The translations under genes and the position numbers were made by a program. Below the pieces are notes generated by a model. That model was given only the letters and a program-made list of their open reading frames with translations. It made no database searches and was not told the origin of the DNA. A stretch of 28,791 bases of DNA. Source: a virus. This document shows, piece by piece, positions 22,269 through 27,965 of this stretch (position 1 is the first letter of the stretch; each line of letters starts with the position of its first letter). The stretch is from the UHGV virus genome UHGV-1403449; one strand, written 5' to 3'.

Positions 22269-22829
22269 ATGAAATACTCACAGCAAGAAAAACTACAGAT
22301 CATGATGCTCAGTGATATTCACCGAGCATTAGAAATTGAAAACTCATTTGATCCTGACCTCATTGACGAAGCAGTGAGCACGGATAACTACTGGGCTTTA
22401 TCCTGGGAATACCCAGGCCTTCAAGATGAAGAAGAGGAGACCCCCTGGGAAGTCCAGCTTTTCGTTGATACCTATGATATGTATGACATTCTCCAATACA
22501 CATACGAACGATTCAGTGCGGAAGACAAAGCAGAGGTTGCCAAATCTATTCGTAATTTCGATGAGAAATTATCACTCACATTCCCCGGATTTGACGGTAA
22601 CAACGAATCAAAGTTTCTTTTGATTGGTAGTTTATTGAAACGAATGGGACGGTTTAGCGGCAAAGACGATCTCACCCGGAACTCTCACATGCCCTCTGTT
22701 GCAATTTACCAACGTATGCTTGAAGTTTTCCTTCCTGCCAGAGCTAAGAATTGGGTTCACAATGTGGGCATTACTAAACATGATTTTATCGATACACTCA
22801 ACGCGAGAGTGCATCCAGAAAATCGTTAA
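22269..22829 (+). CDS. Moron gene: putative YfbU-like (UPF0304) protein
   Basis: 186 aa ORF on the opposite strand between the spanin and terS genes, with its own promoter-like and terminator-like elements; C-terminal ...YQRMLEVFLP... and overall pattern resemble E. coli YfbU as recalled from memory (unverified). Confidence 0.5.
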   Translation: MKYSQQEKLQIMMLSDIHRALEIENSFDPDLIDEAVSTDNYWALSWEYPGLQDEEEETPWEVQLFVDTYDMYDILQYTYERFSAEDKAEVAKSIRNFDEKLSLTFPGFDGNNESKFLLIGSLLKRMGRFSGKDDLTRNSHMPSVAIYQRMLEVFLPARAKNWVHNVGITKHDFIDTLNARVHPENR

Positions 22830-24177: not shown

Positions 24178-24456
24178 AGCCTCACCTCCGATTTTTCGGA
24201 TGGCGCTGTGTGTGATGATAAGGTCAGGCTTCACGGGCTGGATTTATCAACAAAGCACGTAGTAATTGATTCCCGTGAGCCTGAAATGAAAAAGGCCACC
24301 AGTTGGCAGCCTCGAAGTGAGTTAACTTGTTTATATAGGTGGAGCGAGAGGTCCTTCTAAAACTTCCGCTTCACCGTTATGGCAAATGTCATCACCTATG
24401 GTCAGACGCCTGTGGTTGTGATGGCCGTTTAAGATTGAGCCAGCACTGTAGTTGCA

Positions 24457-25248
24457 TCAATTACCCAATGGCTTATGTAGTTTAAATGGGTTAAGTGATT
24501 CTTCATTTTTCAGGCTTATCTTTAAATTCACAGCAATCAGTGAATGATCGTCAGTTGGTCCAGCGCGCTGTATCCGCTTAAAAAGATTGGTTGAAAAGTT
24601 AGTAGCATTCTTCAATGTATTGGGAGAAAAACGCGGGCGGCGTTCCCAGAAGTGATGGGCTCCATCGGACATCAGAAAAAGAGAAACAACACCGTCATGG
24701 TCCATCAAATCTGACAGGGGTAACGAAATATGCTGAAATTTTATTGGCAGGACTTTAGAAATAGCTGCAGTAAGCATGTTCTTTCCTGGTAAGTCTTCCA
24801 ATTCCCTTTTCGTATATAACCCATCGTCGAGCAACTCTTGATGCTGTGAGTGATCTTTCGTTAGTAGTTTTAATTTGTTATCAATTTTTACATACACCCG
24901 AGTATCGCCTACATGGATTACATTAAGTAACTCACCATGTACAACACAGTAGGATAATGTTGTTGCGGCCTTGCGCTTCTCTGAATCGAACTGAGATAGT
25001 TCAGATATTTTGTCTTTTGCACCACTAAGTATCGCATCAGGATCAGAACTGGCTTTCAGTTTATGAGTTGCGACATAGTCTACTGCAGCTTGCGCTGCTT
25101 CTTTAGCACCAGCATAAGACCCGACACCATCAGCAATAGCAAAAATGAAGCCATCATCACATTGTTGCGGGAGTAGTAACGCATCTTGGTTTTCACGACC
25201 ATGATCTTTGGGGCATGAAAATGCACCACAGCTCAACAACTCAATCAT
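24457..25248 (-). CDS. PP2C-family Ser/Thr protein phosphatase
   Basis: 263 aa; metal-binding motifs of PP2C phosphatases (IADGVGS, GDTRVY, MSDGAHHF); start overlaps the kinase stop by 4 nt (ATGA). Confidence 0.75.
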   Translation of the reverse strand: MIELLSCGAFSCPKDHGRENQDALLLPQQCDDGFIFAIADGVGSYAGAKEAAQAAVDYVATHKLKASSDPDAILSGAKDKISELSQFDSEKRKAATTLSYCVVHGELLNVIHVGDTRVYVKIDNKLKLLTKDHSQHQELLDDGLYTKRELEDLPGKNMLTAAISKVLPIKFQHISLPLSDLMDHDGVVSLFLMSDGAHHFWERRPRFSPNTLKNATNFSTNLFKRIQRAGPTDDHSLIAVNLKISLKNEESLNPFKLHKPLGN

Positions 25249-26027
25249 TTGCCTCTCCTTGCTGCAACAATATCATCAAGAATGTCTATCATCTCAGTGA
25301 CAGAATCGTACCTTGAACGAGGCGTAAATGCCGCTGATTTATCGATTAATGTCGTTATACCGTCAATATGAGATAGATTCATTTCACTAGTAATAACACC
25401 TAGCGCGTAAATATCTGATTTCTGTGTATATACTCCGCGTTTAGCCTCGTCAGACATGTACTTAGCAGTGCCAATACCCATTTTTTTGTTTTGAAGTACA
25501 CCTGACAAAAAATCAGATTGGGCTTTCGAATCCATACTTTTGATTAGGCCGAAATCGGAAATTTTGTAACAGCCTCCTTCAAACTTGAGGATATTCTCAG
25601 GTTTCAGATCCCTGTGAAGCAACCCAGCGTCATGGATATACTTAACGCCTTCAAACACCATCTTCAGGGCTAACAGCTTTTCATCATCAGAAAGAACGCC
25701 CGCTTTTAGTTCGCTTCTTAGGTCTGTTTCTGCCAACTCCATCACAAACCAAGGGTTTTCTATGCTTAAATGATGTATGCAAATTCTTACAACATGATCA
25801 TGATTGCACTTGGCTTGGTAGTCGACTTCACGCTTAAACCGACGCTTCCAGTCATCTACACTAAAATATTCATTTAATAACGCAGGATTAACTGAAAGAA
25901 CTTTCCTTGCATACTCACCACAAAGATGGCTATCGGTGTTATATACCTCAACCTTTTCCACACGACCAAAAGCACCAAAACCTAGATCTCTCAATGGTTT
26001 TATAAGGTAATTACCCCTGGGTTCCAT
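25245..26027 (-). CDS. Hanks-type (eukaryotic-like) Ser/Thr protein kinase, catalytic domain only
   Basis: 260 aa; Gly-rich loop LGFGAFGRV, catalytic loop HRDLKPENIL, DFG motif (ISDFGL), activation-segment TAKYMSDE and subdomain IX DIYALGV. Confidence 0.85.
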   Translation of the reverse strand: MEPRGNYLIKPLRDLGFGAFGRVEKVEVYNTDSHLCGEYARKVLSVNPALLNEYFSVDDWKRRFKREVDYQAKCNHDHVVRICIHHLSIENPWFVMELAETDLRSELKAGVLSDDEKLLALKMVFEGVKYIHDAGLLHRDLKPENILKFEGGCYKISDFGLIKSMDSKAQSDFLSGVLQNKKMGIGTAKYMSDEAKRGVYTQKSDIYALGVITSEMNLSHIDGITTLIDKSAAFTPRSRYDSVTEMIDILDDIVAARRGK

Positions 26028-26146
26028 AGCTTACTCACATAAAATTCTCATGAGCAAAATCTACACCCAAAAGAAAAACCACACCATATCAATAGGTTTA
26101 ATTTTCCAAAGAAATCTATCTACACCCTGCAGCAGCTTAAATACAC

Positions 26147-26188
26147 CTCAAAAAAGAAAACCCGCTCATCGGCGGGTTATTAATTTTT
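26147..26188. terminator. Intrinsic terminator-like hairpin with A/T runs on both sides (strong in the minus-strand direction)
   Basis: AACCCGC-TCATCG-GCGGGTT 7-bp stem (26158-26177); read on the minus strand it is followed by TTCTTTTTTG; about 120 bp upstream of the kinase start. Confidence 0.5.
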
Positions 26189-26412
26189 ATCTATCGCTGC
26201 GGGTGTAACTTCGCGAGCATAGCTGAATTCAAGCAATCCCCGCGCAACTTTGCAACCGGAATCGATCAGCTTTTTTATCAAATACATCACACATTGGTAA
26301 GTACAGCATGGCTTCTGCCATCTGCAACCAGACATCAATTCGACTTTCGCAGGTACGTAGGCACCATTCCGGGTGACGAGTATTCAGTTCTCTTGCCGCC
26401 CATCTTCACGAA

Positions 26413-26440
26413 GCCCAGCCATGTGCTGGGTTTTCTTTTT
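26413..26440 (+). terminator. Plus-strand intrinsic terminator-like element
   Basis: CCCAGC-CATGT-GCTGGG hairpin followed by TTTTCTTTTTT on the plus strand. Confidence 0.45.
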
Positions 26441-26514
26441 TGAAGCGCACTAATCACCGTAGCCACAGATATTCAGCAATGAGTTGGTTGGGTCTGGTTC
26501 TTGGTGGTAATGCG

Positions 26515-26541
26515 CTTTAAAAAAGCCAGCGGCGATGCTGG
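26515..26541 (-). terminator. Minus-strand intrinsic terminator-like element (candidate tR-prime-type terminator)
   Basis: GCCAGC-GGCGAT-GCTGGC hairpin; on the minus strand it is followed by TTTTTTAAAG. Confidence 0.45.
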
Positions 26542-26996
26542 CAAGATGAGGGTAGTGCGTTGAGCTTTCGCTCTTATGGTCCTGGTAGGTATTTGAGATA
26601 GTGGTGTCTGGTGGCTAATTCCAGATTACGCCTAACATCACGTCCTCTGACTTTACAATTCACCACAACGGAAAGAGCACTCACGTCTCGCGTGTCGGCA
26701 CGAATACCCACCCAGAGAGTCGAACTCTGAAAATGCCCTTACCTGTTGTGCAGATATAAAAAAGCCCGGAGCCATTATGCAGATACTAACTATTGTCTGC
26801 GAACGGGGCCGGGCTATTGAATGACAACGCCATCATCCAGATGGCGGCCTGATTACTCAGGTCTTGGAGAACCTCTCAGCTCTCTACGGTTGGAGTACCA
26901 GACGATGCGCCGAAGATACCAACTAGGCGGTTCAGTGGTGAGAGCCGCCTCTTTTGCCTCACCGCCAACGAAGTCAGTAACCCATCGTTAGAATCG

Positions 26997-27025
26997 AGAT
27001 TAAACAAAAATCGCCACTTTGTAAA
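26997..27025 (-). promoter_or_regulatory. Candidate late promoter (PR-prime-like) just downstream of the Q gene
   Basis: Minus-strand TTTACA, 17-bp spacer, TAATCT, about 45-70 bp downstream of the Q stop codon; weak -10 match. Confidence 0.3.
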
Positions 27026-27067
27026 GTGTAGTTTTCTAGATAAATCCTATTTCATAGAAAACATTCA

Positions 27068-27832
27068 CTATCGCGTGACTTTGTTCAACATCTGGTTTGC
27101 GTACTCTTCCTGCTTGATGCACTCACCTACCAGACTTTCGAAAAAATCCTTGTAAGACCTGCGCCACGTGGTTTCAGGTATATCCATCACCGTTACGCAG
27201 ATGTATTTACGGACGCTATCAGGTAGCAATCTGGCATAACCACGCCCATTGCAGCGCGTACAGGTTTTATATGCAGGAACGCCGCGCTGTAGAATAGTTT
27301 TCTCTTTGTCTAATACTGTTCCTTTGCCATTGCACTGGCATGCGTTGGTCAGAGCACCCTTCCCTTTGCATTTGTGGCAAAGCACCTTAACCATCTCTCT
27401 TTTTTCGCTAAGGTGTGGCTGTCCGATATGCTTCATCGTCATTACTTCAGCTTCGACAAACTTATTTCCATGGCAGCAGTCGCACGTTCTGGTGCTGGCC
27501 GCACTCCGGGAGTAATCAGCAAAGGCGAAAGTTGCGAGAACTTGCATTACCTTTGGCTTAACATCACTCTCAAGCTTGCGTAAGGCAGCAACCTTATCGC
27601 AGTGCTCAATTGCATATTTTGTCAGCAAATCAATCGCTCGCTCGCGATCGTAATCACTGATATCCATCTTTCCTAGGAATGCACTGAACCCGAGAGCAGC
27701 ACGGCTCTGTGTCATTCCGATCGCCGCCATAATGTCAGTGCCGGTTAATGAGTCAGATGCTGTCGCGCGTGGAGCGTCGCTAATCATCGTTGACTTCGCG
27801 AAGTGGTATTTCACTGTGTTTTCAAGGTTCAT
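27068..27832 (-). CDS. Late-gene antitermination protein Q (lambdoid Q family with Cys-rich zinc-binding region)
   Basis: Cys-rich motifs CDCCHGNKF, CHKCKGKG, CQCNGKG, CTRCNGRG; located between NinG and the late leader/lysis region. ORF is open to 27928; the start at MNLENTVKY (27832) is tentative. Confidence 0.65.
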   Translation of the reverse strand: MNLENTVKYHFAKSTMISDAPRATASDSLTGTDIMAAIGMTQSRAALGFSAFLGKMDISDYDRERAIDLLTKYAIEHCDKVAALRKLESDVKPKVMQVLATFAFADYSRSAASTRTCDCCHGNKFVEAEVMTMKHIGQPHLSEKREMVKVLCHKCKGKGALTNACQCNGKGTVLDKEKTILQRGVPAYKTCTRCNGRGYARLLPDSVRKYICVTVMDIPETTWRRSYKDFFESLVGECIKQEEYANQMLNKVTR

Positions 27833-27965
27833 AGCGCTTCTCCAGCATAAGTTTTCACGTAATTCTTCAGTATCCGGTAGTCCGTTAGCACAGAGCCGGG
27901 AAAGTGGTATAAGCGCAATCGTTGCCAACGAACGCGGAGGTGATCGGCAAAATAGGATTCAAATG

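Follow-up and report, generated by a model that had tools for sequence, protein, structure and literature searches.

The virus genome UHGV-1403449, analysed here as a window of 28,791 nt, carries a long gap at positions 26028-27067, between the stop codon of a Q antiterminator gene and the start of a Ser/Thr kinase gene. We conclude with considerable confidence that this gap serves a lambdoid prophage as its Q-dependent late leader, that it is read on the minus strand and that its modules differ in origin. Judged by its homologies, it is a textbook late leader, and the shuffling of modules accounts for its extra length. The general scheme of such regions runs from the Q gene through the promoter pR', a pause element and a terminator to the late genes (bioRxiv 10.1101/651190). 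The anatomy of the gap, its homologies, the covariation in its RNA elements and one recombination joint were observed directly in alignments and folds. A first-pass annotation, made by a model from the letters alone, had proposed a Q-dependent late leader with tandem terminators for a Q-modified polymerase to read through, and this proposal is supported by homology to the annotated or characterised leaders of lambda, P22 and HK620. The same annotation had called the gap non-coding and free of any open reading frame (ORF) of 60 aa or more. The longest ORF between the Q stop and the kinase start is indeed 56 aa; the description as non-coding holds for most of the gap and fails at 26397-26229, which is the 3' end of a truncated gene.

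The gene directly upstream of the leader is a Q antiterminator gene of the lambda-Q family, with profile matches to PF03589 (E=8e-44) and phrog_127 (E=1e-102) and a match to the lambda Q structure 7UBM (E=1.9e-48). The mechanically called Q ORF reaches a TTG at 27928 (286 aa), and all homologues, together with a near-identical IMG/VR contig, start at the ATG listed in Table 1. The parts of a lambda-Q-type cassette follow in order: a sigma-70 promoter within about 100 bp of the Q stop that is conserved with Q, a pause element, and a downstream terminator. The promoter lies 43-71 bp after the Q stop, in agreement with the late promoter that had been suggested 45-70 bp downstream of Q. Its TTTACA-17-TAATCT aligns with the lambda pR' (TTGACT-17-TAAATT) and with the annotated P late of P22. 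The bases after the -10, AACGATGGGTTA, are identical in lambda, and at the aligned position the P22 record gives P late, a qut-like site and a 5' nucleotide that is the first A of AACGA. The pause element AACGAT is itself identical in lambda and P22, and all relatives hold either AACGAT or AATGAT.

Comparison with relatives extends this picture. We collected 53 distinct leaders, namely those that follow related Q genes, and in these the block CTTTACA-AAGTGGCGAT-TTTGTT-TAATCT-(7 nt)-AA(C/T)GAT is almost invariant, while the sequences diverge about 25 nt past the start. Such conservation would be expected if a promoter carried a cognate Q-binding element and a sigma-dependent pause element (bioRxiv 10.1101/651190), and the spacer element AAGTGGCGAT is presumed to be the Q-binding element. 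Between the Q stop and the -35, the palindrome TTTTCTA-N16-TAGAAAA is kept in the same leaders, with compensating variants such as TTTCCTACAG/CTGTAGGAAA; lambda and P22 differ, having the palindrome TTGCCA-CGGA-TGGCAA at this place.

From the predicted start onward, the region is colinear with the lambda 6S RNA in a multi-phage alignment of lambda, P22-like phages and HK620. It is predicted to be the template of a short RNA of the lambda 6S type, 232 nt long, with a fold of -85.1 kcal/mol (z -2.5) and about 40 nt more than its lambda counterpart, including one more hairpin at 26846-26828. Short pR' transcripts are known from lambda, 21, 82, P22 and Stx phages and are made in lysogens (PMC7547250). 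The predicted RNA would resemble StxS and similar short RNAs from antiterminated late promoters, being a constitutive, prematurely terminated pR' transcript of the lysogen (PMC7547250). The transcript would end at a compound hairpin that aligns with lambda tR' and is, on this homology, the primary terminator of the leader. It also surpasses the other terminators in strength (-24.2 kcal/mol, z -4.33), and none of 200 shuffled sequences folds as well. Relative to lambda tR', three pairs are altered on both sides with pairing kept, and one G-C pair has become G-U. The first-pass annotation had located this element correctly, at 26757-26815, and had listed it as one of several further imperfect palindromes rather than as the main terminator (z -4.3) of the leader.

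A second RNA element begins 6-7 nt past the U-run of tR'. Here, a 5' arm, GCACAACAGGTAAGGGCA, pairs with AGTGCTCTTTCCGTTGTG about 60 nt downstream to form a helix of about 19 bp with a variable interior. The arms recur in lambda, HK620, a Klebsiella phage and many IMG/VR contigs, downstream of at least five types of tR' and around more than 12 unrelated interiors. The loci include, beside the window (26664-26750, minus strand), lambda (L006, 943-1020), HK620 (L004), the Klebsiella phage (L216, 1450-1525) and about 25 IMG/VR loci. Across 29 distinct versions, 90.4% of cells are paired and 6 of the 19 pairs show double-sided changes; none of 500 shuffles reaches the observed values, and controls in which the arms were slid give 32-62% pairing. 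The outer pairs were used as search bait and are invariant partly through that selection, whereas the inner pairs were unselected. The substitutions include a G-C to G-U to A-U series, which is compatible with a sense RNA only. A double-stranded RNA of about 20 bp held by compensatory change is what an RNase III site calls for, and the helix is probably an RNase III processing site of the late transcript. For lambda, Daniels et al. (1988, as cited in PMC7547250) reportedly described sites at which RNase III processes the late transcript, and a long, imperfect, conserved and covarying helix just past tR' would be a likeness to them, with the assignment made from sequence. Rfam 15 holds no model for the helix.

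Two further observations concern the surroundings of this helix. In the window, its interior at 26729-26705 (minus strand) reads CAGAG-TTCGACT-CTCTG-GGTGGGT-A, which resembles a tRNA T-arm followed by a 3' acceptor strand. In the Klebsiella phage vB_KpnS_MK54 (L216, 1450-1830), the helix is followed by two sequences that look tRNA-like by eye, with TCT and CAT anticodon loops; the record of that phage annotates only tail and capsid genes around the helix, on the opposite strand.

The second sense terminator matches, in position and in downstream sequence, the HK620 feature "tQ, late transcription terminator", and is kept in Salmonella phage SI8 and in an E. coli prophage. A consensus scan for terminators and promoters, covering 25800-27300 and compared with shuffled sequence, returned 7 terminator-like sites against 1.6 +/- 1.3 in the shuffles, and it placed the minus-strand hairpins and the plus-strand hairpin named in the first-pass annotation where that annotation had put them. 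The hairpins of the gap have fold z-scores from -1.7 to -4.3. Conservation of the terminator hairpins in related phages is better evidence than these scores. One further palindrome, proposed at 26225-26275, lies inside the truncated gene and is not independently supported, its z being -2.05 on the minus and -0.7 on the plus strand. The view that chance alone produced the hairpins in AT-rich non-coding DNA could cite the unremarkable z of two of them, and is scarcely credible given the excess of sites over expectation and the conservation or covariation of each in independent phages.

The coordinates of all features are collected in Table 1.

Table 1. Features of the late leader and its surroundings in UHGV-1403449 (functions of the control elements predicted by homology)
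Feature	Position	Strand	Details
NinG gene	28586-27966	-	
Q antiterminator gene, lambda-Q family	27068-27832	-	254 aa from ATG at 27832; homologues also 254 aa
Palindrome TTTTCTA-N16-TAGAAAA	27032-27061		between Q stop and -35
Late promoter pR'	26997-27025	-	-35 TTTACA 27025-27020; 17-nt spacer; -10 TAATCT 27002-26997
Predicted +1 (26989) and sigma-dependent pause element	26984-26989	-	AACGAT, +1 to +6
Predicted pR'-tR' transcript	26758-26989	-	232 nt; lambda 6S RNA homologue
tR' terminator	26758-26815	-	compound hairpin 26815-26763 (53 nt), then U6 26763-26758
RNA helix, about 19 bp, variable interior	26664-26750	-	starts 6-7 nt past tR' U-run
Second sense terminator, HK620 tQ homologue	26519-26542	-	stem 26542-26525; U6 26524-26519
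Antisense-facing intrinsic terminator	26410-26444	+	stem 26410-26434, then TTTTCTTTTTT; z -3.45
Recombination joint, 9-bp microhomology	26389-26397		GGCAAGAGA; common to P22-type leader, DUF1133 gene and window
DUF1133 (Q21-like) antiterminator 3' relic	26229-26397	-	last 56 codons and stop; 97% nt identity to intact E. coli prophage gene
DUF1133-family block	26149-26255	-	TTGCAA 26255-26250; 18 nt; TGAATT 26231-26226 overlapping stop codon
Leader and third terminator of DUF1133 block	26149-26228	-	leader 26228-26190 (39 nt); stem 26178-26159; U-run 26158-26149
Conserved 5' region of cassette	26028-26106	-	about 80 nt; homology to four other copies in different contexts
Ser/Thr kinase and PP2C phosphatase cassette	24457-26027	-	Pkinase E=2.9e-32; PP2C_2 E=5.7e-15; phrog_2361
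Ser/Thr kinase gene	26027-25245	-	first gene after gap
PP2C phosphatase gene	25248-24457	-	after kinase
Fourth sense terminator	24283-24313	-	9-bp stem, then TTTCATTTCA; between phosphatase and holin

The genes around the gap all lie on the minus strand, and beyond the phosphatase they continue with holin, lysozyme, spanin, terminase and virion genes. Between Q and the kinase, BLAST against phage and E. coli collections resolves the gap into segments with different relatives, so that, on these homologies, it is a patchwork of lambdoid modules. The segment 27065-26982 travels with the Q gene (98% identity to an E. coli prophage; also in ES18 and SI8). The segment 26989-26732 has 67-80% identity to lambda 44587-44805, and 26595-26389 has 96% identity to SI8 and 87% to HK620. 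The segment 26397-26157 has 97% identity to E. coli prophage sequence, namely the end of a "DUF1133 family protein" gene plus the next 72 bp, and homology to other copies of the kinase cassette begins at 26106/26105. Among E. coli complete genomes, the Q end and the DUF1133 relic occur separately, and the arrangement of the window was never seen.

In a three-way alignment, homology to the P22-type leader stops at 26389 and DUF1133 homology starts at 26397, with the 9 bp in between shared by all three sequences. The alignment points to an illegitimate crossover within this 9-bp microhomology. The crossover would have swapped the holin-proximal end of the leader for a DUF1133 piece, and hence the leader is 1 kb long and not 0.3-0.7 kb. 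Downstream of the joint, frame -2 encodes ARELNTRHPEWCL...SCAGIA*, which corresponds to the C-terminal 56 residues of the E. coli protein, and this translation matches PF06576 at positions 135-175 of 176 (E=4.5e-15). The relic has no start codon and has in-frame stops upstream, and a full-length DUF1133 ORF (about 190 aa) is absent here. Intact members of the DUF1133 family sit at the Q position in prophages; the family also matches PF06530 and phrog_753 ("anti-termination protein Q-like" PHROGs) and, weakly, Q21 structures.

The DUF1133 piece carries more than coding sequence. We compared 71 distinct loci, whose proteins are as little as 60% identical. The mean identity per column is 0.86 over the final 118 bases of coding sequence (0.79 for third codon positions), stays at 0.86 through a 39-nt leader, and is 0.77 in the following hairpin, 0.70 in its U-run and 0.33 immediately past the U-run. 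A promoter-like TTG(A/C)A(A/T)-18-T(A/G)AATT overlaps the stop codon, at the scan threshold in one member of the family and below it in another. In the window, the block is 97% identical to intact copies, with the conserved promoter-like element, leader and terminator all present. By analogy with the unit that follows lambda-type Q genes, 26255-26149 is probably a complete, yet orphan, pR'/Q-binding/pause/terminator unit of the DUF1133 family, and the hairpin at 26178-26159, terminator-like on both strands, is probably the own terminator of the DUF1133 module. That hairpin had been counted as part of the leader of the present Q; it came instead with the relic.

A rival reading takes 26255-26149 for no more than the 3' untranslated region and terminator with which the DUF1133 gene closes an early operon; the block would then be a passive passenger, and the true late promoter would lie further downstream. 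Its best arguments are the -10 candidate TGAATT, which is poor and was not flagged by the scan, and an E. coli prophage (L002) that has, about 115 nt further on, two more terminators and a more convincing TTGGCA...TAATCT. Set against these, the cognate binding site of a Q protein must travel with its gene, and conservation across the 71 loci spans the 3' end of the gene, the leader and the terminator before it drops to 0.33, a pattern also seen in the lambda-Q-type unit. Moreover, in one locus (L289) the TTGAAA-18-TAAATT reaches the scan threshold, and the scan flags its terminator as well. We therefore regard the passive-end reading as unlikely, though it deserves serious attention, and retain that of an orphan control unit. 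The likeness to a Q21-type cassette (bioRxiv 10.1101/651190) lies in the matches of DUF1133 to PF06530 and weakly to Q21, in the Q position of the family, and in the promoter-like element, leader and terminator that come after; the window differs in that only the last 56 codons are left, and the unit would thus be without a cognate Q.

Between the second terminator and the joint lies a hairpin of opposite orientation. The first-pass annotation had noticed this plus-strand terminator and had suggested a short antisense or independent small RNA. The terminator is real as a conserved feature: about 80 nt past the second terminator, it is present in 48 distinct leaders, including those of P22, HK620 and ES18. 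Its stem occurs in four versions (CCCAGC/GCTGGG, CCCGC/GCGGG, CCAGC/GCTGG and CCCCGC/GCGGGG), with loops of variable sequence. In every case the sense side holds the A-tract, such that a U-run is seen by the antisense strand only. No reading frame is kept across the hairpin; its length changes are not multiples of three and the ORFs shift between phages, which excludes coding there. The terminator is unannotated in the records of P22, HK620, ES18 and SI8 (in the P22 locus, L214, it lies at 991-1016 on the minus strand, at about 38053-38078 in P22 coordinates). In two related phages (L057 and L062), a 163-aa ORF with HNH-like motifs, recognised by eye, lies within the late leader about 390 nt upstream of the conserved block.

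An antisense RNA, an insulator and a sense-RNA structure are all possible roles for this hairpin. That it ends a conserved antisense RNA, or insulates against antisense transcription in leaders of the P22 type, would fit the retention of hairpin and antisense U-tract in the 48 leaders, the compensating stems with their z of -3.45, and the exclusion of coding by the four stem versions and the length changes. This proposal is nevertheless doubtful. No consensus antisense promoter was found downstream of the terminator in P22, and in the window the DUF1133 relic has taken over the stretch where such a promoter would lie. Additionally, two variants hold the stem only through sense-strand G-U pairs, which hints at a role in the sense RNA, and a literature search yielded no report of such an RNA.

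Given the conservation in the gap, a hidden gene has also to be weighed. The first-pass annotation had noted that such regions often carry tRNAs or small RNAs. ARAGORN finds no tRNA or tmRNA gene in the window or in 40 related loci, and the T-arm-like hairpin at 26729-26705 is without the remainder of a tRNA. There is no Rfam match at the gathering score, the best being a Trp-leader-like hit on the third terminator with 23 bits against a threshold of 41, a negative that says little, as the lambda (including the 6S template), P22 and HK620 leaders match no Rfam 15 family either. A small conserved protein across the P22-type block was likewise considered and rejected, as the frame, start and stop of the ORFs differ between phages and the hairpin length varies by non-multiples of three. 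Thus, the tRNA part of the expectation falls away, and the small-RNA part survives as the one predicted small RNA, the pR'-tR' homologue of 6S.

It is very improbable that the conservation of the gap is due to a concealed tRNA, a small protein gene or a member of a known small RNA family. In favour of this idea stand the T-arm-like hairpin with its acceptor-like 3' strand, the tRNAs that follow the helix in some related leaders, and the "hypothetical proteins" that several phage records annotate there; opposed to it are the empty ARAGORN and Rfam searches and ORFs that change frame and ends between phages in the conserved block. The only coding signal is the truncated DUF1133 relic; a short protein gene explaining the conservation, which the first-pass annotation had named as grounds for abandoning its reading, was not found in the gap.

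The leader ends at a kinase/PP2C cassette. On comparison of its copies, this cassette is mobile and moron-like, with terminators on both flanks and different genomic contexts. The kinase resembles defence kinases (PADLOC mad6, E=1.7e-36; also PD-T4-6 and Stk2), and the pair recurs behind lambda-Q-type or Q21-like antiterminators, or after lysis genes (L007, L009-L013). An intrinsic terminator precedes the cassette in 5/5 closest copies, the window included, and the block of about 80 nt just before the kinase start is kept in all copies compared. Consensus scanning and comparison of the copies found no workable sigma-70 promoter in that block, which holds TTGATA and TA(G/A)ATT 23 nt apart, with nothing flagged by the scan. 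The first-pass annotation had proposed that the terminators serve to insulate the kinase and phosphatase in the lysogen. A moron-like cassette with a kinase that resembles defence kinases would need expression in the lysogen from a promoter of its own, and for this reason insulation as the purpose is doubtful; the cassette moreover comes with its own flanking terminators. Elsewhere in the late region, a YfbU-domain gene (PF03887, E=5.5e-12) lies reversed at 22269-22829 (plus strand), between the spanin (DUF2514) and small terminase genes, and is probably another moron.

Taken in order, these parts suggest the following course of events. In the lysogen, RNA polymerase would start constitutively at pR' (about 26989) and pause at the -10-like AACGAT. 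Without Q, it would stop at tR' (26815-26758) and yield an RNA of about 232 nt similar to lambda 6S. Polymerases that escape would meet three more intrinsic terminators before the holin gene, at 26542-26519, 26178-26149 and 24313-24283. Upon induction, Q would load on the promoter-paused complex and render the polymerase resistant to terminators, such that one transcript would run through all four into the kinase, phosphatase, lysis and structural genes. The helix just past tR' would probably be cut by RNase III in this late transcript. The 3' end of a DUF1133 gene, with its conserved promoter-leader-terminator block, would have been swapped into the leader, where it is now an orphan and is followed by the mobile kinase/PP2C cassette.

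Several points weigh against this account of a composite Q-dependent leader. The pR' scores 8/12 against consensus and is not listed by the consensus scan, and so the promoter assignment rests on homology. Promoter activity, pausing, termination, Q-dependence and RNase III cleavage are all attributed to the window through its relatives. The two short sense terminators have a weak fold (z -1.7 and -2.1). The orphan -10, TGAATT, has a G at the critical second position, and the same is true of intact E. coli copies. Finally, no donor with both DUF1133 and the kinase cassette was present among the best 80 DUF1133 loci, and a genome-wide donor scan returned one distant kinase relative only.

Compared with known late regions, the window shares with lambda the Q family, the distance of the promoter from the Q stop, AACGAT with the next bases, the 6S body, the compound tR' and the helix after it. 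It differs from lambda in its -35, -10 and spacer (the presumed Q-binding element), which are those of a Q subgroup like P22 gp23 and ES18 gp73, in its longer transcript with the extra hairpin, and in a downstream leader that is of the HK620/P22 type and truncated. With the P22 and HK620 leaders (P late/qut/t late and pR'/qut/tQ), it shares the second terminator as counterpart of HK620 tQ, and with P22, HK620, ES18 and SI8 it shares a 140-nt block after that terminator, including the antisense-facing hairpin. In contrast to the window, P22 and HK620 carry, in place of a 6S-like RNA, a short t late some 30-60 nt past the start, and their leaders run on to the holin gene where that of the window is cut at 26389.

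We may go one step further, in a proposal that we consider improbable. The orphan unit could act as a tripwire, at which the DUF1133-type Q of a superinfecting or co-resident phage would antiterminate and so switch on the resident kinase and lysis genes. Separately, the antisense-facing terminator may mark an antisense RNA that is as yet undescribed.

The leader of UHGV-1403449 serves as a worked example of how a long non-coding prophage leader can be resolved into known parts stacked one after another. It is likewise a worked example of an antiterminator-module swap caught at a 9-bp microhomology, which has left a complete orphan control unit behind. Beyond this, three elements may be of interest to specialists: the covarying helix after tR', which occurs in many lambdoid phages and is absent from Rfam; the antisense-facing terminator of P22 and its relatives, missing from the records of P22, HK620, ES18 and SI8; and the block that probably comprises the late promoter, leader and terminator of the DUF1133 (Q21-like) antiterminators, a family as yet uncharacterised.

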